Virus record (IMG/VR): IMGVR_UViG_3300037153_000606
Origin: a virus
Reading direction: 5' to 3' (one strand)
Length of the DNA stretch: 64,000 nucleotides
Below the pieces are notes generated by a model. That model ran no database searches. It saw only the letters and a list, made by a program, of their open reading frames with translations, and was not told the origin of the DNA. The number at the start of each line of letters is the position of its first letter. Position 1 is the stretch's first letter. Both the position numbers and the translations under genes were made by a program. Shown in pieces: positions 10,401 to 47,224 of this stretch.

Positions 10401-11406
10401 CCGGACCTTCTTCAGCCGCGACCACGGCGAGGCGTTGCACTTCGCCCAGTCGCACCACGGTGATGACGCCGACGTGGTCACCGCCTACCTGCACCCGGAC
10501 CACATCGAGACCGACTCCGGCGGCGGGTGGTACCCCTCGGTGCAGGTCCGCGATGTGGCACACGCGATGGCGATCCGAGAGCCGAAGACCGCCGCGATGG
10601 TCGCCAAGGAATACGAGGGCGAGGTCGGCAACCGCAGCCACATCACCCGGGGCGAACGCGGTGAGCTGCCCATCGGCGCGGTGCAGCACATGCGCGGCGC
10701 ACGCGGGGAGCAGCCCGGCGAGCATCGCAACCGCATCGGCACGGACTGGGATGCGTTCAAGGACGACATCGCCCGCAACGGCATCAAGGAACCGATCTTC
10801 ATCACCGTCGACCACGGCCAGGAGCCGCAGCTGGCTGAGGGCAACCACCGCCGCGACGCCGCCGTCGAGCTGGGGATGACCCACATCCCGGCCGAGGTGC
10901 GTTACTTCGGCCACGCCGAGCACGAGGGCACCGTGGAGGAGCGTGCGGGACTGACCCGTCAGGCGGCCTCGTCCCGGCTGGAACGGGCCTGGGGATCGCA
11001 CGACCCGGGCACGCTGTTCGGGGATGCGCCGTCCACGTCGGCACCGTGGCCGCGTGCCGGGCGATTGAAGTCCCGACAGGACTACGACAAGGACCTGGTC
11101 CGTGAGGTGATCTCTGACCCGGAGCACCACCACATGGCCGAGATCGACCCGCGTGAGCTGCACGCCACCCAGCCGAGCATCACCCGGGCGGGCGTGGCAC
11201 ACTACCTGGGCGGCGACTACGAACGCACCGGTGAGACCTTCGCCGACAAACACAACCCCGGCAACCGCCGTCCCGTGGTGTACCGGCGCGAGGACGGGCA
11301 GAACCTGTTGTTGTCCGGGCACCACCGGGCTACGGCGGCACTGTTGCAGGGCCGCCCGCTGCGGGCGCTGGTGATCGATGGACCGTGGGGACCGGGGAGG
11401 GGATGA
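7453..11406 (+). CDS. polyvalent multi-domain protein: ART-like, RelE-like, nucleotidyltransferase, second ART-like, two ParB/Srx-like domains
   Basis: TLYHVTT..GLRS (ART); RMIHRY..LQIHTVGTH (RelE-like); FFGSEAS..ADFD (NTase); FFHGTS..GGF (ART); LAEGNHRRDAA and LLSGHHRATAA (ParB). Confidence 0.75.
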   Translation: MIRLAWADPGHRPEYEPLHEGASDDEASAHFDRQRAIKNDWQRGIRHGLSMGHLSEQEAKDRGYHPSGHETRGWQPLPHTLYHVTTNLPAVHEHGLRSRDELNQLQGKGLGGGESDTISYTEDPGTARDILHSMREFHDAVTGRTTPHQLMERARSGDMGSRPFEREMRESNAMNVDRVLRGKQHLDDSFTTQAEMDAKHGPGMTSPGPDSVAYDAPKGRVHNRWERDSTPDERQEDAAALYKHFSYWREHAGGHPDPLFFGTDVKGFAASDPAHHGIVKVHPKPGAQGYQMGSLGEWRSATGDNVEVDRSHDPHTAVQAALNEPGSREELIRHAEGTQDLYRPADGSSRPLCATHALHDEGWRRRMHEFARDVKLTDTELPEAPSMRGIGQGRCPACTEQQHELRRHAPQPQEFEKNRNRPGGAFHPEPNRYGDRGTSAPFTPLAPSLSTRENGSHERAAAGPPGLHTSDLGRGNIASRSGLRRSLDRDPAWFRLAQGEGSASGLPPIEDCDEHHPYILREHDSLDDDLEELPAWAERNYNDRAHLLLHGLEHSTTHLLTAGRMKNRGLYATSLTDNPKDNRFRMIHRYSGDRLQIHTVGTHRRTYQIGPGRADDFDRMSARVHPTQRIFGPTFGLDTRLWDGEKLRPEVRADLLHDFTRFCAAHGYRDWHRWAKVHFFGSEASEWTSPELFGNADFDTNVGIDFPAFRKANPTYAHLHNADIALMFTHQMQQELNDPADTFPGVPGVWDHTWFSNPDSWDIRKIRPYAAYDVTANEWVVKPPHLPEWSWASFPPAVRKALDAAASYAKDVLRLPEPQRTQQGAALFDAWHSDRTRAFSPHGEGWWDFANIREKFLDQLGIWKQLVDAKHHDMAGEAMSPADWSNLPFGMTAATDRWPPYLTERADEYGDVYPANESRHNPRGPVGTLEDAQQAGLVGPFFHGTSKRRGREIRAGGFRQPRLHNWEMANAGTAEEVDVGNTHRTFFSRDHGEALHFAQSHHGDDADVVTAYLHPDHIETDSGGGWYPSVQVRDVAHAMAIREPKTAAMVAKEYEGEVGNRSHITRGERGELPIGAVQHMRGARGEQPGEHRNRIGTDWDAFKDDIARNGIKEPIFITVDHGQEPQLAEGNHRRDAAVELGMTHIPAEVRYFGHAEHEGTVEERAGLTRQAASSRLERAWGSHDPGTLFGDAPSTSAPWPRAGRLKSRQDYDKDLVREVISDPEHHHMAEIDPRELHATQPSITRAGVAHYLGGDYERTGETFADKHNPGNRRPVVYRREDGQNLLLSGHHRATAALLQGRPLRALVIDGPWGPGRG
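8822..9013 (+). CDS. nested +1-frame ORF, candidate antitoxin 1
   Basis: MSELPPDHPDYIHP, paralogous to the 43296 ORF; ends at the start of a RelE-like domain. Confidence 0.6.
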   Translation: MSELPPDHPDYIHPTWEEEILRRDQDSDDHWIETPRGSDWRKAREARRASRRSKTATSTIPTS

Positions 11407-27346: not shown

Positions 27347-27913
27347 GTGGGCGGCTACTCCGGAGGATACGGCGACAACCTCACCGCCGAGGAGCTGATC
27401 GGGCGGCTGGAAGCCCTCAACACGCTGCGTAGCCGTGAGTGCGCCCATCCCGGGGCCGAGGCCGAGGATCTGGCCCAGGAGGGCCGTATCGCGCTCTGGC
27501 GGGCCGTACAGAGCCATCCCGGCCACTCCCGGGAGTACTACTCGGCGGCCAGCGGGCGGCGCATCCGGGAAGCGGCGATCCGCCAGACCTGGACCGGGCA
27601 CACCCGACACCACGGCCAGCCCACCGACCCGTTGCGCCAGCCCGGCAAGCGCTCCCTGGATGACCCAGACTTCGCGGTGCCCGAGGCGGTGGATGGCACC
27701 GACTGGGTGAACGCCGCCGAGTGGGGCTATCACCGGGGCGAGATCCTGGCCGCGCTGAACACACTCTCGCCGCAGGCCCGTGAGTATGTGTGGCGGCGGT
27801 TCTGGTGCGGCTGGTCGGCTGGTGAGCTGGACCAGGTCTACGGTGGCAACTCGTGGCGGGTATGGGATGCCGCCCGGTCCGAGCTGCGGGAGATGCTGGC
27901 ATTGCTCGGATAG
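27347..27913 (+). CDS. ECF-like RNA polymerase sigma factor
   Basis: AEDLAQEGRIALW (region 2); LNTLSPQAREYVWRRF (region 4). Confidence 0.7.
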   Translation: MGGYSGGYGDNLTAEELIGRLEALNTLRSRECAHPGAEAEDLAQEGRIALWRAVQSHPGHSREYYSAASGRRIREAAIRQTWTGHTRHHGQPTDPLRQPGKRSLDDPDFAVPEAVDGTDWVNAAEWGYHRGEILAALNTLSPQAREYVWRRFWCGWSAGELDQVYGGNSWRVWDAARSELREMLALLG

Positions 27914-29216: not shown

Positions 29217-29288
29217 GTCGCGGTGTGAAGGGCCCCGGTACTTCTTCTGGAAAAGAATCCACCCGGTGCTCATATCTGGTATCGCGGC
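29217..29288 (+). ncRNA. Y-RNA-like element 3
   Basis: GTCGCGGTGTGAAGG..GGTACTTC..GGTATCGCGGC terminal stem, immediately upstream of Ro60. Confidence 0.55.
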
Positions 29289-29308
29289 TTTACGTACTGG
29301 AGGACCCC

Positions 29309-30919
29309 ATGAGCAAGCTGGCCAAGACCAGCGCCGCCGTCACCGCAGGCGGTATCGCGGCGCTGCGTACCACCTCTACCCCGGACATCACCACCTACGA
29401 GGGCGCGCCCGGCTACTCCCGGGACGCCAAGACCGAGCTGTTCACCCTCGCGGTGGCCAACTTCGTGTCCGAGCAGACCTCCTACGAGTCGGCCCAGGAC
29501 CGCGACACCCGGTTCCGCGAGCTGATTGCACGGGTCACCGTCGAGGACCCGGAGTGGGTCGCCGACTTCCTGTCCTGGCTACGGCAGTCGGCCAACATGC
29601 GCTCGGCGGCCATCGTCGGCGCGGTCGAGTACGGGCGCGCCGTGCAGCCGCCGTACCCGATCGCCAAGCGCAAGCCGGGCACGCTGCAGGTCACCCTGAC
29701 CCCGCGCGCAGTGCTCAACTCGGTCATTTCCCGCGCCGACGAGCCCGGTGAGGCGCTGGGCTACTGGCTGGGCCGGTACGGCCGCCCGCTGCCCAAGTGG
29801 CTCAAGAAGTCGTTGGGCGACTCCGCGCTGCGGCTGTACACGCCGTTCAACTCGTTCAAGTACGACGGCCAGAGCCAGCGGGTGCGTTTCGCCGACGTGA
29901 TCGAGTTCAGCCAGATCGAGGGCGACAACCCGGTCTGGAAGTGGTTGCTCGACCGCCGTCACGGCCACGCCGAAGGTGATTACGGCATCGAGATGCTGCG
30001 CGCCCGCCAGGACCTGGAGGCACTGCCGGTGCCTGAGCGGCTGGCGCTGATCACCAGCACCGCAGTGACCGGGAGGCTGCGTGCGGCCGGGATGACCTGG
30101 GAGTCGGTGTCCGGCTGGTTGCAGGGCCCGATGGACGCCGCCGTCTGGGAGGCGCTGGTCCCGCTGATGGGCTACATGGCGTTGCTGCGCAACCTGCGCA
30201 ACTTCGACGAGGCGGGCGTGTCCGACGAGGTGGCCCAGAAGGTGTTGGAGCGGCTGACCGATCCGGAGCAGGTGGCCACGTCCCGGCAGCTGCCGTTCCG
30301 GTTCTACTCGGCCTACCAGGCCGCGCCGAGCGACCGGTGGAAGCACGGGCTGGGCAAGGCCCTGGATCTGTCGCTGCATAACGTGCCGAACCTGGACGGC
30401 CGCACCCTGGTGCTCATCGACGTATCCGGTTCGATGTCCTACTCGCCGTTGACGGCCCGTTCCTCGGTCTACCCGTGGGCCCAGGCCGCACTGTTCGGGC
30501 TGGCACTCGCGCGCTCGCAGGCCAAGGCGGCCGACGTGGTCGCGTTCGACACCTCGGTGCGCAGCTTCAAGCTGAACAAGGGTGCGAACACGCTGGCCGA
30601 GCTGGCGCGGTTCCGGGGGCTGGTCACCGGCGGCGGAACCTACACCGCGCAGGCGGTCCGGCAGACCTTCGACCCGAACCGGCACGACCGGGTCGTGGTG
30701 CTCTCCGACCAGCAGGCGCACTACGACGGGGTCGGCGTGTTCGACTCGGTGTCACACCACGTGCCGTGCTACACGTTCGACGTGGTCGGCTACCACGCCG
30801 CGCACGCGCCGACGTCGAGCACCCGGCATCTGGTCGCGGGTTTGACCGACAGTGCGTTCCAGATGATGAAGTCGCTGGAGAGCGCGGCCACCGGTCGGTG
30901 GCCGTGGCAGACTGAATGA
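29309..30919 (+). CDS. rsr: Ro60/TROVE-domain RNA-binding protein with C-terminal vWA
   Basis: TTYEG, TWE..SGW, MGYMALLRNLRN, SRQLPFRFYSAY, vWA DVSGSM and GGGT. Confidence 0.92.
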   Translation: MSKLAKTSAAVTAGGIAALRTTSTPDITTYEGAPGYSRDAKTELFTLAVANFVSEQTSYESAQDRDTRFRELIARVTVEDPEWVADFLSWLRQSANMRSAAIVGAVEYGRAVQPPYPIAKRKPGTLQVTLTPRAVLNSVISRADEPGEALGYWLGRYGRPLPKWLKKSLGDSALRLYTPFNSFKYDGQSQRVRFADVIEFSQIEGDNPVWKWLLDRRHGHAEGDYGIEMLRARQDLEALPVPERLALITSTAVTGRLRAAGMTWESVSGWLQGPMDAAVWEALVPLMGYMALLRNLRNFDEAGVSDEVAQKVLERLTDPEQVATSRQLPFRFYSAYQAAPSDRWKHGLGKALDLSLHNVPNLDGRTLVLIDVSGSMSYSPLTARSSVYPWAQAALFGLALARSQAKAADVVAFDTSVRSFKLNKGANTLAELARFRGLVTGGGTYTAQAVRQTFDPNRHDRVVVLSDQQAHYDGVGVFDSVSHHVPCYTFDVVGYHAAHAPTSSTRHLVAGLTDSAFQMMKSLESAATGRWPWQTE

Positions 30920-40438: not shown

Positions 40439-41389
40439 ATGAGCATCGCCATCTTCTGTGCCGACTGCCACGCCACCGGCGAGGTCGAGCGGGTCACCCC
40501 TGGCCTGATGTGCCGGTGCGGGTCGGCCAACCTGGGCCTGGACGGGGTGGACCCGAAGCCCTCCATCCACACCGCCGCACCCACCGGTCCCGGCACCGGG
40601 TGGGGACGGCCGCGACCGGACCCCACCGCCGGGTGGGACCAGTACCAGGGCCCGCCGCCCACCCCGAACCCGTACGGGCCACGGGACGGCAACCATCCCG
40701 AGGACAGCTGCCCGGAGTGCCTGGGGTCCGGCTACGACCTGATCGACAAGTGCCCGTGCCGGGCCTGTTTCGGCACCGGTCGGCGCAACCCGACCACGTC
40801 CGCACCGGCCGACGCCACGCACCCGCTCACCTGGGATTCGCACCAGGGCCCACCGGCGGGCGGGGCACGCTGGCAGGGCACCGCCACACGGCAGATCACC
40901 TACCCGGCGGGCAGCCCCACCCCTGAGTCCACTCAAACCGGACATGGCCCGGGAACGCGCGTGAGCAGGGCACAGAGCCACGCGACCCCCCATCCCAGTG
41001 TCTCTGCCCAACCAACCCCTGTTCGTGCGCCTGGCGACACCTCCGCACCCCGCACGGCGGCCCATTTCCCGTTGGTCACCGCGTCGTGTCCCAAGTGCGG
41101 GCAACGCAACGCGACCCAGCTCACCGCCGACCTGGCCAACCACGCGTGGTGGGACTGCCGCCGGTGCGGCGGGCTCGCCGACCTGGACCGGCACCCGGAG
41201 ATCGACCCGTTCGACCCGCCGCCCGCACTGCCGTCCGAACGACGCCGCAAGGCCTCCAGGCTGCGCCGTGCGCCCAAGCCGGACGGCCGCCTGTTCCCGA
41301 TGTTGGACGCGATCACGGCGGCCAACGACATCTCGCCGCGCGAGGCCCTTACCCTGGCCCGCCGGGCGCTGACGGCGCACCCGGAGTAG
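40439..41389 (+). CDS. multi zinc-ribbon protein
   Basis: CADC, CPECLGSG..CRACFGTG, CPKC..CRRC. Confidence 0.6.
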   Translation: MSIAIFCADCHATGEVERVTPGLMCRCGSANLGLDGVDPKPSIHTAAPTGPGTGWGRPRPDPTAGWDQYQGPPPTPNPYGPRDGNHPEDSCPECLGSGYDLIDKCPCRACFGTGRRNPTTSAPADATHPLTWDSHQGPPAGGARWQGTATRQITYPAGSPTPESTQTGHGPGTRVSRAQSHATPHPSVSAQPTPVRAPGDTSAPRTAAHFPLVTASCPKCGQRNATQLTADLANHAWWDCRRCGGLADLDRHPEIDPFDPPPALPSERRRKASRLRRAPKPDGRLFPMLDAITAANDISPREALTLARRALTAHPE

Positions 41390-42481: not shown

Positions 42482-45400
42482 GTGCTGCTCACCGAGGCCG
42501 AGCTGGCCCGGAAGGCCGCGCACCAGAGCGACAACGAGCTGAACTACGCGCGGTTCGGGTGTTACCACACCGCGTTGGGCCGGGTGTTGAAGGGCCACCG
42601 CCGTGCCCTGCTCGAAGACGCCGCGATGGACCGCCCGCCGCCGGGCATCGAACCGGTCCGCCACGTCATCGAGGGTGCCCGCGCGTTCAACGCCCACCAC
42701 GGCCTGGGCGACCCGCACGGCGACGTCGACTACCACCGGGTGCGCACCCACCGGGGGTTGTTGACCGACCTGGCCAAGGCCTACGACCGGATGCCCGAGG
42801 ACGACCCCGAGGCGCACCGGCACTTCGCCGCCATGGGCCGCGAGGTGGACCGCCAGTACGAGCACATGACCAACCGGATGGGCATCCACGTCCAGGTCAC
42901 CGACCACGACCCGTACCGCGACGTGCACGAACTGCGCGAGGATGTGGCCAACAACCACCGCATCAAGGTCCTTGGCACGCACGCGACCGGCGGGCACCCG
43001 TTCTTCTCCAACGAACAGAACGACCGGTTCCGTGCGGTGCACGACCTGTTCGGGCACCTGGGCACTGGGCGCGACTTCGACCGGCACGGCGAGGAGGCCG
43101 CCTTCCAGGCGCACGCCCGGATGTTCACCCCGCAGGCTCGTGGTGCGCTCGCCTCCGAGACCCGCGCGCAGAACGCCCACCTGATCACCACCGGGCGTTT
43201 CGGTGCCCAGAAGATCGCGTTGATGCCGAAGCGGTTGTGGCACCCCGGCCTGGCGCACATGGCGGCTTCGGACCCGTCATGGGAGAATGATTTTCATGCG
43301 ATCCAGCGAGCTGCCTCCGGATCATCGGGACTACATGCATCCCGAGGTCGAGGCCGAGTTGGAACGGCGGATGAACGACGGGTACCGCTGGGACGATCCG
43401 AGTCGAGTGGCACATACCGAACGCGAGTTGCGCGAGCAGATGGACCGCGATCTGGCAGTGGCCGAAGAACACGAACGGCGACGCAGGACAGCCAGTTCGA
43501 CTTCCGCGTCCGTAGGCATCCGGGACTCGAATCCGACATCCTGAACCTGCCGTCTGAACTTCGGCCCAAGCTGCATAACCGCATTATCGAGATGGCGCGC
43601 GGCCATGAGCCGCCTGATACGCACGACCTTGACGAAGAACCATTGTCACGAGGCAGATGGCGTGCCGGGACGATCATGGACGAAACCGATCCCCAGCACG
43701 AGCAAGATCGTTGGAGGTGGATCCACCGCTACCACGGCGGCGACCTGCAGATCTTCGCCGCCGGGGCACACCATAAGCCGGGAGAGCCGGTCGATCCCGA
43801 TGCTCCTCCCGACATTTATCGACATGCCCGGGAGCGATGGGAAGACCCCGATCGGCGGTATTTCGCCGCCATCGAGTACGTCGCCATGGGCCACGCCGGA
43901 CCGGACTACACCGGGTTGAGTTTTACCGACACACAGCACCACCAGTACCGCGAGATCTCTTACCGGCGCTTACAGGCATACCATCCCGACCACGATACGC
44001 CGGTCGGCGAGATCTCCTTCTCGGTGTCCCCGCCGCACGCCAAGCGCCCGTTACCGTTGATCCAGATCGACAACGTCGGGGTGCCCGCCGAACACCGCCG
44101 CCGGGGCGTGGCCACCGCCTTGATGAACGAGCTGGAGCGGCAGTATCCGGACCACGTCATCGACCACGGGGAACGCACCAAGCCGGGGGCGGACTGGGCG
44201 AAGTCGAAGTACGGGCCGGGCCAGACCCGGGGTTGGTCCAAGGCCCGGGAACGGTTCACCACCACCGACCTCACCCTCAACGGTCGGCCCTACACCGCCA
44301 TGGGCCAAGCAGGACCGGACTACGAGGGCCTGACCTTCAAAGACATGTCCGGGTTCGAGTACGGCGCGCACCCGGACCTGCACCACCATCGATTGTTGTT
44401 CGCCAGACACCCGGACGAACCCGGGTACCTGGGCCACGTCCAGTACGAACAACACCCGCACGAGATCGAGATCCACAACCTGACCGTGCACCCGGAGTAC
44501 CAACGCCGGGGGGTGGCCAGTGCGTTGATGGGCGAACTGGAACGGCGCAATCCCGGCGTCGTGATCAACCACGGGATGCGGTCCTCGTCCGGCACGCAGT
44601 GGGCCAAGGACTTCTACGGCCACGAGGGCCCACCATTGAACAACGGCCAGCAAGGGTGGACGGTCGCCCCGCGCACCCGCGACCGGGAGAGGGTCGCCAA
44701 GCACGTCGCCGCCGAGGGATTACCGCCCGGTTACACCATGGCGGTGCGCGAGGACCCGAGCACCGAGCGGTGGGGCCTGCCCGCGCTGCACGTCAAGGTT
44801 CGCCACGGCGGTCGAGAAGTCGGCGCGTTGAGCGTGCACCAACGCGACATCGACGACGAGCGGGTCGGGCACCCGAACATCTACGTGGACCCCGAGCACC
44901 AACGCCAGGGTCTGGCCAGTGCCATGTACGCCGAGGTGCACCGGCGGTGGCCGAAGGTACCGGTGGTGCATTCCGAACACGCCAGCGATGCCGCCAAGGC
45001 GTTGAACCAGCGCCTGCTGGAGCACTTGCCGCAGTTGCACCGGCAGGCCGCCGCCGAGCGCTACTACCACGCGACGCCTTATGACTTGGATCGAGAGACG
45101 CATGTCCGGTCACCGATGGAGACAGGTCGGGAGCCGCATTGGGGTGGAATGGGCGACCAAGAGGACGCTCAGGTCTTCGGCACCCACTCCATCGAGAACG
45201 CGCACGAGTGGGGCGGCGAGATTGCCGACTCGTCCCACTACCGCATTTACGAGGTGCAGTCCGAAGGAAATGTGGAAGACCACTCTCACACCTGGGCCGC
45301 ACCCCGGGCTCGGATCCTGCGTCGGGTGCACCCTCCGGTTGCCAAGCAGGCCGCCGCCAGGCACACCATGTCATTAGCCGAACTGCGCACGTTGCCTACC

Positions 45401-47224
45401 GAGGACTACCGGGTGCGGGTGGACAAGGTGCGGGCCAAGATGGAGCACGAGTGGCGGCACGGCACGGACACCCAACGCACCTCCTGGCGCGTACACGGCG
45501 GCCCGTCGGGGTACCTGGATCAGCTCGGTGCCGACATCACCGCGCACGGCATCACCGAACCGATCGTCATCGGGCACCGGCCCAATGGGCGCACCACGAT
45601 CTACGACGGCACGCACCGGGCCCTGGTCGCGCACGAACAGGGCATCGACCCGGTGCCGGTCACCCATCTGGATCTGGTGCCGGGTCAGCACATTGCGTGG
45701 GACAATGGGAACCATGGCCGAGGACAAGCCCCGCCGGTACCCGTTGGACGAGAACGGGCGACCGGATCTGGCCGACGAGTGGGATCTGCCCGAGGACTGG
45801 CCCAAACCGGAGGACAATCCGTACGCGGTACGACCGGGCGAGGATCATCGCGAAGTGTTCAACCGGATGCGTACCGACGGTCGTCGCGAGAGAGAAGCTC
45901 GGGAAGCCGCCGAGAGGGAGCGCGCGGTCAAGAGCTGATTGTCCATCTCCCAGATCCGCATCCTCATCTGAAGAACGATCTCGATCGCCTCAGTGATGAC
46001 GATCATGAGCATTACCTAGATCGTATTGACGTCCTCAGGACTCATGATCTCGGTGGCAATACTCATTTACTGACTCACGGTCGACTTGCTGGGTGGTCTG
46101 GTACGTACCTGCACGATGACGCCCAGACACACGTAATCGTGCATCGCCGTCGTCGATACACAAGAGTGCCTCGATTACAGGTGTTGGCGGTTGGCCCCCA
46201 TGACGAGGCATACGCGAATGCCGAGCGGCGATTGTCCAATCCCTCACGACGGTTCGCCGCCGCCGACTGGGACGAGTTCCGGCGCATCCAGGACACTCAA
46301 CGCCGCCGGTACGAGCGGCCCGGCGTCGGTGGCGACCAGGAAGACCGGGACCGGTACTTCGGCACCGGTGAGATGCGCGGGGTCGGCGAGGAACGCCTGA
46401 TCACGCCCAAGGACTGGATCACGCACTCGCGCAACCAGCGCTTCGAGGACACCGACCCGCACTTCCAGGAGCACTGGCGCGGGTACGAGCTTGGACACGC
46501 GCACGGTGCGAGCGGCAGGGTGGACGCCGAAGAGTTGGAACGCGAACACGCCCGCAGCCCGCACCAGGACCATTTCCGGGCCGGGTACGGGGAAGGACTG
46601 GAGGCCGCGATGGACCGGGTGGCGGTGTTGGTTGGACCGGGTACGCCCACGGCGGTGACCATCCCGAAGACCGCGCACGTGTCCGGCAACACCGTGGACG
46701 CCCTGCACTGCCCGTTCTGCGGTAGCGGTTCGGTCACGGCACGTTCGGACGGGTCGATCGAATGCAGCTTCTGCACCGCCGCCTACACGGTGCAGGTGCA
46801 GCCGCAGTACTCGGCGTTCCCGCAGACCGTCAACGACATGCCCTACCCGTGGCCGGGCCGCGACGACCTGGGTGCGGGCGGCCTACCGGGTGGCGTAGTA
46901 GACGAACAGGACGGCGAGCAGGACGAAGCCGACGGCGAGCAGGATGGCGACGGGTCGGTCCCGCCCTGGTTGGGTGGCGGTGAAGGAGATGACCAGGACG
47001 CCGAAGACGAGGCAGACGAGGGCGAGGATGAGGACGAGCCCGAGGATGACGAGGCGTCCGTCCATGGCAGCAAGGCTCCTCCGTTCGGCAAGAAGAAGTC
47101 CTACCTGAACACACGTGGGCAGGAATTGTCCGAAGAGGACTACTTGCGGCACTTGGCGATCCTGGTCAGCCCGGACCCGGCGGCCATGGCGGCGAAGGTC
47201 AGGAAGCAGCGGGTGGGTGCGTGA
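42482..47224 (+). CDS. polyvalent protein: unknown N-domain, RelE-like, three GNAT, Arr/ART-like, ParB-like, second RelE-like, C-terminal zinc ribbon
   Basis: HRRRGVATALM, YQRRGVASALM and HQRQGLASAM (GNAT motif A); RYYHAT..IYEV; IYDGTHRALVA; CPFCGSG..CSFC. Confidence 0.78.
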   Translation: MLLTEAELARKAAHQSDNELNYARFGCYHTALGRVLKGHRRALLEDAAMDRPPPGIEPVRHVIEGARAFNAHHGLGDPHGDVDYHRVRTHRGLLTDLAKAYDRMPEDDPEAHRHFAAMGREVDRQYEHMTNRMGIHVQVTDHDPYRDVHELREDVANNHRIKVLGTHATGGHPFFSNEQNDRFRAVHDLFGHLGTGRDFDRHGEEAAFQAHARMFTPQARGALASETRAQNAHLITTGRFGAQKIALMPKRLWHPGLAHMAASDPSWENDFHAIQRAASGSSGLHASRGRGRVGTADERRVPLGRSESSGTYRTRVARADGPRSGSGRRTRTATQDSQFDFRVRRHPGLESDILNLPSELRPKLHNRIIEMARGHEPPDTHDLDEEPLSRGRWRAGTIMDETDPQHEQDRWRWIHRYHGGDLQIFAAGAHHKPGEPVDPDAPPDIYRHARERWEDPDRRYFAAIEYVAMGHAGPDYTGLSFTDTQHHQYREISYRRLQAYHPDHDTPVGEISFSVSPPHAKRPLPLIQIDNVGVPAEHRRRGVATALMNELERQYPDHVIDHGERTKPGADWAKSKYGPGQTRGWSKARERFTTTDLTLNGRPYTAMGQAGPDYEGLTFKDMSGFEYGAHPDLHHHRLLFARHPDEPGYLGHVQYEQHPHEIEIHNLTVHPEYQRRGVASALMGELERRNPGVVINHGMRSSSGTQWAKDFYGHEGPPLNNGQQGWTVAPRTRDRERVAKHVAAEGLPPGYTMAVREDPSTERWGLPALHVKVRHGGREVGALSVHQRDIDDERVGHPNIYVDPEHQRQGLASAMYAEVHRRWPKVPVVHSEHASDAAKALNQRLLEHLPQLHRQAAAERYYHATPYDLDRETHVRSPMETGREPHWGGMGDQEDAQVFGTHSIENAHEWGGEIADSSHYRIYEVQSEGNVEDHSHTWAAPRARILRRVHPPVAKQAAARHTMSLAELRTLPTEDYRVRVDKVRAKMEHEWRHGTDTQRTSWRVHGGPSGYLDQLGADITAHGITEPIVIGHRPNGRTTIYDGTHRALVAHEQGIDPVPVTHLDLVPGQHIAWDNGNHGRGQAPPVPVGRERATGSGRRVGSARGLAQTGGQSVRGTTGRGSSRSVQPDAYRRSSRERSSGSRREGARGQELIVHLPDPHPHLKNDLDRLSDDDHEHYLDRIDVLRTHDLGGNTHLLTHGRLAGWSGTYLHDDAQTHVIVHRRRRYTRVPRLQVLAVGPHDEAYANAERRLSNPSRRFAAADWDEFRRIQDTQRRRYERPGVGGDQEDRDRYFGTGEMRGVGEERLITPKDWITHSRNQRFEDTDPHFQEHWRGYELGHAHGASGRVDAEELEREHARSPHQDHFRAGYGEGLEAAMDRVAVLVGPGTPTAVTIPKTAHVSGNTVDALHCPFCGSGSVTARSDGSIECSFCTAAYTVQVQPQYSAFPQTVNDMPYPWPGRDDLGAGGLPGGVVDEQDGEQDEADGEQDGDGSVPPWLGGGEGDDQDAEDEADEGEDEDEPEDDEASVHGSKAPPFGKKKSYLNTRGQELSEEDYLRHLAILVSPDPAAMAAKVRKQRVGA
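43296..43544 (+). CDS. nested +1-frame ORF, candidate antitoxin 2
   Basis: MRSSELPPDHRDYMHP, paralogous to the 8822 ORF; ends just inside the start of a RelE-like domain. Confidence 0.6.
   Translation: MRSSELPPDHRDYMHPEVEAELERRMNDGYRWDDPSRVAHTERELREQMDRDLAVAEEHERRRRTASSTSASVGIRDSNPTS
45714..45938 (+). CDS. nested +1-frame ORF, candidate antitoxin 3
   Basis: acidic MAEDKPRRYPLDENGRPDLADEWDLPEDW; same start signal; stops just before a RelE-like domain. Confidence 0.5.
   Translation: MAEDKPRRYPLDENGRPDLADEWDLPEDWPKPEDNPYAVRPGEDHREVFNRMRTDGRREREAREAAERERAVKS

Follow-up and report, generated by a model that had tools for sequence, protein, structure and literature searches.

An overprinted +1-frame gene paired with a RelE-fold domain inside a phage polyvalent gene: a candidate toxin and antitoxin-like cassette

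How can a phage gene carry a RelE-like toxin domain in the middle of a long polypeptide, and what is the small open reading frame (ORF) that lies out of frame directly ahead of that domain? The question is raised by a 64,000-nt stretch of viral DNA (IMG/VR record IMGVR_UViG_3300037153_000606), the whole of which we call the window, and in particular by its positions 45699–46240, here called cassette 3. The cassette lies inside a plus-strand ORF of 1580 codons (P0001, 42482–47224) encoding a polyvalent-type multidomain protein, which comprises an N-terminal phrog_3170 domain, a second copy of the RelE-like domain, three GNAT domains (found by Pfam), a ParB-like segment, the third RelE-like copy and an acidic C-terminal part. 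The ParB-like segment, read from the P0001 translation, is directly upstream of cassette 3. We consider it likely, with a probability of roughly 60%, that the locus is a two-part cassette within the polyvalent gene, in which a linker and a RelE-fold toxin are read in the main frame and a separately started, antitoxin-like protein is overprinted on the linker.

All features described below are on the plus strand. The 5′ edge of cassette 3 (45699–45716) carries the motif GGGACAATG-N6-ATG, with a Shine-Dalgarno (SD)-like GGGA and two in-frame ATGs at 45705 and 45714; GGGACAAT occupies 45699–45706 and is followed by 7 bases and then by the ATG at 45714. This second ATG opens a +1-frame ORF of 74 amino acids (45714–45938), the antitoxin-like partner of RelE-like copy 3, which is supported by codon usage and by GC content at third codon positions (GC3) and has no detectable relative. 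About 225 bases are thus open in two frames, that of the small nested ORF and that of the linker, because the main-frame reading of the overlap (45717–45937) is also stop-free and gives a basic linker of the polyprotein in which R, G, S, A and P make up 70% of residues. The two readings meet at a CTGA junction (45935–45938), where the nested TGA (45936–45938) overlaps a Leu codon that, in the main frame, belongs to the first strand of the toxin domain, and the RelE/YafQ/YoeB-fold domain follows directly (45938–46240, residues 1153–1253 of P0001, GC3 0.50). Hence the motif-N7-ATG arrangement, the 74-codon +1-frame ORF and the adjoining RelE-like domain all lie where the first-pass annotation had placed them, as the sequence and an alignment of the three copies confirm. 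The peptide, which it had described as acidic, is mildly so, with an isoelectric point (pI) of 4.9 and a net charge of −5.

Two further cassettes are present in the window. Cassette 1 (8808–9312) lies in the ORF 7444–11406 (P0002) and consists of the edge motif (8808–8824), a nested ORF of 63 amino acids (8822–9013) and a RelE-like domain (8977–9306). Cassette 2 (43282–43825) lies in P0001 itself, with the motif at 43282–43298, a nested ORF of 82 amino acids at 43296–43544 and a RelE-like domain at 43496–43825; both of these nested peptides belong to a family described below under its motif HPTW. The pattern GGASAATG-N6-ATG matches three times in the 64-kb window (8808, 43282 and 45700), each time at a cassette, where 0.01 matches are expected, which agrees with the earlier proposal that the three share one architecture and spacing. 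In all three, a second in-frame ATG is found 9 nt upstream of the nested ATG, and the nested stop is a CTGA with CTG in the main frame, with the stops of cassettes 1 and 2 a few codons farther into the toxin domain than that of cassette 3. Alignment of the three toxin domains gave 15 invariant columns, and copy 3 was the most divergent, with 24–34% identity. The nested peptide of cassette 3 had been called unrelated to the others, and so it appeared here, with BLASTP E values of 4 and 11 against the peptides of cassettes 1 and 2 and an E value of 57 against the profile of the relatives' nested peptides. If the pairs are cognate and diversify together, a different partner on a different toxin in the same architecture would be expected at copy 3.

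To decide which frame codes in the overlap, we used composition and substitution patterns. The distribution of GC by codon position shifts register at ∼45700 and reverts at 45938. In a codon-usage model trained on nine other genes of the window, with 201 true-frame windows taken elsewhere in the two polyvalent genes as reference, the nested frame of cassette 3 scored a log-likelihood ratio of +0.76/+0.52 per codon, which is inside the true-frame range (minimum 0.46/0.34), whereas the main frame of the same bases scored −0.19/−0.62 and resembled off-frame sequence, a value as low as this being reached by none of the 201 true-frame windows. For cassettes 1 and 2, the conserved 26 codons could be compared with each other: they differ at 32 nucleotides, of which 18 are at the third position of nested codons, and the ratio of synonymous to nonsynonymous changed codons is 9:10 in the nested frame and 1:18 in the main frame. 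These counts are direct evidence, at the level of sequence, for selection on the nested frame in copies 1 and 2. A comparison of this kind gives nothing for copy 3, as the members of the 90% cluster that holds its protein are all identical. The open main frame carries little weight in one cassette, and as evidence from one cassette it was dropped: +1-frame stops occur at ∼2% per codon in this GC-rich DNA, the chance of a stop-free main frame across the nested ORF is ∼0.55 per locus, and weight comes only from consistency over 14 cassettes. Moreover, the stretch from the cassette edge to the toxin core has no canonical main-frame start in cassettes 1 and 2 and a single GTG lacking an SD site in cassette 3. 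Because the toxin domains of the window have no usable start of their own, they would be made intact only by reading through the overlap, and both frames are probably translated.

The same arrangement recurs in other phages. Cassette DNA was recovered from eleven external loci of metagenomic phages (L001–L011), which together with the three of the window make 14 cassettes. A small +1-frame ORF is present in all eleven, with 45–73 codons where the whole ORF could be read; the nested stop falls on a Leu or Val codon belonging to the toxin's first strand in all eleven as well as in cassette 3; and no main-frame stop interrupts the stretch of the nested ORF in any of the 11 loci scored, nor in L010 and L011. 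Ten of the eleven external nested peptides, with those of cassettes 1 and 2, form one family with the motif H-P-T-W..E-L..R followed by W..P.G; the peptide of L009 is marginal (E 0.012) and that of cassette 3 lies outside. When the 1182 six-frame segments of the window were ranked by a profile of seven external peptides (L002–L008), the nested peptides of cassette 1 (E 1e-10) and cassette 2 (E 1e-4) came first and second, and the same profile found L010 and L011, which were not part of it, at E 1e-15. Between distant loci, amino-acid identity is two to three times higher in the nested than in the main frame, for example 0.35 against 0.12. One locus, L006, has the canonical operon form, in which a called gene of 48 amino acids stops at a GTGATG that starts the toxin-bearing protein, and the CTGA junction of cassette 3 occupies the position of this GTGATG. 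In L005 and L007 the toxin start has been lost, and the main frame begins 7–17 nt before the nested ATG. These two are N-terminal cassettes (L007, 2001–2010; L005, 2001–2022), in which the polyprotein and the nested ORF start in different frames behind one purine-rich site, and the choice of start codon would set the ratio of toxin to partner. Only four such nested peptides had been called as genes among 5.8 billion protein clusters. Relatives carry ART-PolyVal, PARP and ParB_N domains, and in L007 the end of the polyvalent gene is overlapped by the next gene downstream (5237–5722), which resembles HNH/NUMOD4 homing endonucleases.

That the main-frame domain is RelE-like, as the first-pass annotation had read it, was borne out by its predicted fold. 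An AlphaFold2 model of the family, made from an 11-sequence alignment that includes copy 3 and has the L005 copy as its first row, reached a predicted local distance difference test (pLDDT) score of 91.2 and a predicted template modelling (TM) score of 0.82. The best Foldseek matches were Mycobacterium tuberculosis RelE1, Vibrio cholerae YafQ, Escherichia coli YoeB, RelK, Helicobacter pylori YafQ-like toxins and HigB, with E values down to 1e-5 and target-normalised TM scores of 0.73–0.82, and nearly all of the top 50 were RelE, YafQ, YoeB, HigB and ParE-type toxins. A model from the three window copies alone was unusable (pLDDT 36), so that copy 3 belongs to the modelled family by the alignment and by profile matches of E 1e-12 to 1e-15. 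At the sequence level the signal is faint: NCBIfam gave full-length matches at E 0.005 to TIGR00053 YafQ (17.6 bits, cut-off 87) and TIGR02385 RelE_StbE (17.3 bits, cut-off 27.9); full-length profile matches to a RelE-like phrog in PHROGs and to YafQ and RelK in the PDB were likewise weak; Pfam gave no match to the toxin domain, including none to a PBECR model; and a three-sequence profile run against the PDB returned only spurious p6 matches. Because all sequence matches fall under the curated cut-offs, we class the domain as a new family, divergent within the RelE superfamily. In the alignment with YafQ and RelK, the His of YafQ ‘DHPL’ and the terminal His of RelK are matched by the invariant His of ‘STH.L’ and by the C-terminal ‘G.H..Y’. 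The Arg of ‘R..HR’ is nearly invariant, being His in copy 3. A ribonuclease (RNase) could have such a set of conserved His, Arg, His and Tyr residues, and the domain is probably a ribosome-dependent mRNA endonuclease. A profile of the three copies found the domain in 21 clusters among 1.84 billion representative proteins, all of 381–1995 amino acids and with the domain at variable positions.

The cassettes thus join two coding frames, a RelE fold and a conserved layout, and it is from its position that we infer an antitoxin function for the nested product. The first-pass annotation had proposed a general design of toxin cargo with an overprinted immunity gene, and of this the cargo and the overprinted gene are supported by codon usage, selection on the nested frame, homology by peptide profile and the lack of a usable toxin start, whereas the word ‘immunity’ follows from position only. 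Several observations weigh against our reading. Pfam, PHROGs and NCBIfam gave no match for the nested peptides, to antitoxin or DNA-binding families or otherwise, and nor did the ESM Atlas; in most relatives these peptides are basic (pI 10–11), unlike typical acidic antitoxins, and acidity was therefore dropped as a trait of the family. In the clade L002–L004 the main-frame linker is no less conserved than the nested peptide, and may serve some purpose itself. The RelE-like domains score, by sequence, below the curated family cut-offs of Pfam and NCBIfam. In the three cassettes of the window, SD and ATG are ∼10 nt apart, towards the upper limit of common spacings. Lastly, the peptide of cassette 3 has no homologue in the databases searched, a search for relatives of copy 3 returned only the protein itself, and as a result the evidence for coding in cassette 3 is only of a compositional and positional kind. 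We also observed a linker motif, ‘AGKGKPR.DAPDVARRA’, in L002, L003, L004, L010 and L011, which is as conserved as the nested peptide overlapping it; either both frames are constrained there, or the motif has its own role, such as a cleavage site or nucleic-acid binding.

Some of these points would fit a nested ORF that is real and conserved but whose product is not an antitoxin, serving instead as a helper of folding or packaging, or one whose translation merely tunes the supply of ribosomes to the toxin domain. The basic peptides of most relatives and the missing antitoxin signature are what such a function would allow, and the closely spaced starts of L005 and L007, where start choice would set the product ratio, suit a role in tuning. 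Against this, the nested ORF is strictly paired with the RelE fold and stops at the first strand of the toxin, and the GTGATG of L006 is present, all hallmarks of antitoxin–toxin pairs; moreover, the conserved amino acids of the HPTW family argue that the product itself matters, and not translation alone. We therefore regard a non-antitoxin product as unlikely.

The start signal bears on how the nested frame would be expressed. In the exact spacing of GA(G/C)AAT before the ATG the first-pass annotation saw the geometry of a leaderless promoter, possibly read by a phage sigma factor. The nested gene would then have a leaderless transcript of its own, the hexamer, 7 nt ahead of the ATG, serving as a −10 element for the host SigA or for a phage sigma factor. 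The actinobacterial −10 consensus is TANNNT, and its A-11 and T-7 are both present in GA(G/C)AAT; in addition, the exact geometry is found in cassettes 1, 2 and 3 and in L004 and L009, whose peptides differ, and L009, with its marginal peptide match, has the same GGAGAATG-N6-ATG edge. However, GANAAT-N7-ATG occurs in only these 5 of the 14 cassettes, whereas an SD-like GGAG or GAGG lies 4–10 nt upstream of the nested start in nearly all: the nine that lack the hexamer geometry mostly have GGAGGAG, GAGGAG or GGAG at 4–6 nt, L006 has its site at 10 nt, and L008 has only GGGG. The first base of the hexamer is G and not T, no −35 element or sigma-70-type site was found, and the conservation of the motif is confounded, because it also encodes a conserved E/D-N junction in the main frame. 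As to the phage sigma factor suggested for this role, the ORF at 27347–27913 is only weakly sigma-like and nothing links the motif to it. Since an SD-like site is the one feature common to nearly all cassettes, no sigma-70-type promoter is seen and the motif's conservation is confounded, internal translation initiation on a polycistronic message is favoured, and a leaderless origin of the nested product seems quite improbable.

For copy 3 alone, a further explanation is that the 74-codon ORF is a chance ORF or the decayed relic of a former antitoxin gene and that only the polyprotein is made. A peptide with no homologue and no family match, with an Atlas model of low confidence, is what decay or chance would leave, and at ∼2% stops per codon a +1-frame ORF of such length is not very rare in this DNA. 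But its codon usage is that of a gene and not of an off-frame reading; the edge motif, the double ATG and the position of the stop are as in the conserved cassettes; and the main-frame linker has no coding signature that would explain why the sequence was retained, so that we hold decay or chance to be very doubtful. A reading in which the nested frame belongs to the polyprotein, being entered near 45710 by shifting +1 and left at 45936 by shifting −1, whether programmed or due to assembly error, would account for the fact that only the nested frame looks coding in the overlap, but we rejected it, because there are no slippery sites, the junction sequences differ among cassettes, paired errors would be needed at three window cassettes and at eleven in independent assemblies, the nested ORF of L005–L007, with an SD and an ATG of its own, stands at the start of the gene, and in L006 stop and start overlap cleanly.

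A two-part cassette of linker, toxin and overprinted partner can be compared with known systems. In type II toxin–antitoxin systems the antitoxin neutralises the toxin by binding it, usually with a DNA-binding domain for autoregulation. As in operons of the RelE superfamily (RelBE, DinJ-YafQ, YefM-YoeB and RelJK), the small upstream gene here stops over the first codons of the toxin, L006 has the classical GTGA/ATG overlap, and the pair is inherited as a unit; unlike in those operons, the toxin is an internal domain of a 1580-amino-acid polyprotein with no start of its own, not a small protein separately initiated, and its partner is wholly overprinted on a linker and has no recognisable antitoxin or DNA-binding domain. 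Small genes with their own start in the +1 frame of a larger gene are known from lambda Rz/Rz1 and from comS inside srfA of Bacillus subtilis. No toxin is involved there, whereas the present nested gene goes with a single domain, the two moving together as a cassette. In polymorphic toxin/immunity cassettes (Zhang et al. 2012, PMC3482391), toxin domains likewise swap as modules together with a cognate small partner, and copy 3, with its divergent toxin and different partner, resembles this; there, however, the immunity gene is separate and follows a C-terminal toxin, whereas here it precedes and overlaps a toxin that can be internal. Iyer et al. 2017 (PMC5512222) described BECR-fold RNase domains (PBECR1-6) in phage polyvalent proteins, and the present proteins are alike in carrying an RNase-fold effector among GNAT, ParB-like and ART domains in large phage proteins for which packaging and injection are proposed. 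P0001, with three GNAT domains, a ParB-like segment and two RelE-fold domains, has the several unrelated enzymatic domains per polypeptide that mark a polyvalent protein; the domain differs in being of the RelE/YafQ/YoeB type and in matching no PBECR model, and the passages of the article returned by term search mention neither an immunity protein nor an antitoxin partner for the BECR domains. Gerdes 2025 (PMC11980606) set aside multidomain RelE/ParE proteins that had no identifiable antitoxin, and a failure to identify the antitoxin is what an out-of-frame nested partner would cause. The fused RelE/ParE toxins treated in the same work also have a RelE-fold domain in a larger protein and an antitoxin function at the same locus, but that antitoxin is an in-frame fusion or an adjacent gene, whereas here it would be out of frame. 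A full-text search of the literature found no description of an out-of-frame nested antitoxin.

The cassettes are also mobile. In a related protein (P0020), the flanks of cassette 1 (P0002 residues up to 455 and those from 624 on) adjoin with no insert between them, and a cassette of its own lies elsewhere, near the N terminus. The 5′ edge of the cassette 1 insert coincides with GGAGAATG, and at least five different domains have been found ahead of the unit; as judged from these sequences, the cassette moves as a unit. GC3 is 0.50 (45900–46250), 0.56 (9013–9306) and 0.66 (43544–43825) in the toxin parts and 0.70–0.76 in the nested ORFs, compared with 0.85–0.95 in neighbouring genes, and overall GC falls to 0.52 at 45975–46124. 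Because the GC3 of the cassettes is below that of the surrounding genes, this suggests that they were acquired from lower-GC DNA rather than being local.

As to the genome that carries them, the N-terminal 260 residues of P0001 are 47% identical to a hypothetical protein of cluster C-type mycobacteriophages (phrog_3170). Megablast of the host ORF against GenBank phages and tblastn of the RelE-like domains against known phages gave no match, and a scan of GTDB genomes gave no relative and hence no sign of prophage copies in cultured genomes. Scanning IMG/VR with the three window copies found nothing; with a profile of closer sequences (A4), three loci were found on contigs of 147–155 kb, and the P0001 cluster itself occurs on contigs of ∼150 kb. 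Given these contig sizes, the mycobacteriophage match of the N terminus and the lack of a close relative in GenBank or GTDB, the window is part of a large (∼150 kb), uncultured actinobacterial phage. On a second contig of this size (149,850 bp) the called protein P0027 (346 amino acids) begins within the copy 3 RelE-like domain (‘LAVGPHDEAY...’) and is identical over the rest, and its truncation may reflect a contig boundary or a break of the ORF. The C-terminal part of P0001 (46870–47100) has a weak match to a Lar-like zinc ribbon at residues 1408–1433, followed by a long acidic tract rich in D, E and G. Elsewhere in the window, the gene at 29225–30919 is a homologue of Ro60/TROVE plus vWA proteins (Pfam TROVE, E 2e-17), as in some large mycobacteriophages, and an ORF at 40439–41389, two genes ahead of the polyvalent one, shows a weak match to an SprT-type zinc ribbon. 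The product of the latter could be a processing metallopeptidase for the polyproteins. An embedded processing peptidase is another mark of polyvalent proteins, and Pfam found no peptidase in P0001 or P0002 themselves.

If the nested product is an antitoxin, the cassette could work as follows. Ribosomes leaving the ParB-like domain would read 45717–45937 as a disordered linker and go on into the RelE-fold domain, and other initiations at the internal ribosome-binding site (GGGA...ATG) would yield the 74-amino-acid protein, ending at the first strand of the toxin, in the geometry of a type II antitoxin–toxin operon with a 4-nt overlap. During synthesis of the polyprotein in the producing cell, the small protein would bind the toxin domain and silence it. 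The polyprotein may then be packaged and injected, as is proposed for polyvalent proteins (Iyer et al., PMC5512222), and only when freed by proteolysis in the next host would the toxin domain be active, reach the ribosomal A site and presumably act as an RNase. More generally, though only as a tentative proposal that we would not yet back at even odds, phage polyvalent proteins may carry polymorphic toxin/antidote cassettes in which the gene for the cognate inhibitor lies out of frame on the preceding linker, keeping the producer safe as the virion takes up a translation-blocking weapon aimed at the next host. Copy 3 would then represent a second type of specificity, and the GGAGAATG edge would serve both as ribosome-binding site and as recombination boundary.

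A partner hidden in the second frame would explain the apparent antitoxin gap of multidomain RelE-type toxins in phages and plasmids, and would show how a phage can produce a cargo directed at ribosomes and yet keep its own late protein synthesis unharmed. Moreover, the cassettes add a conserved family of never-annotated overlapping genes, which gene callers have merged or missed.

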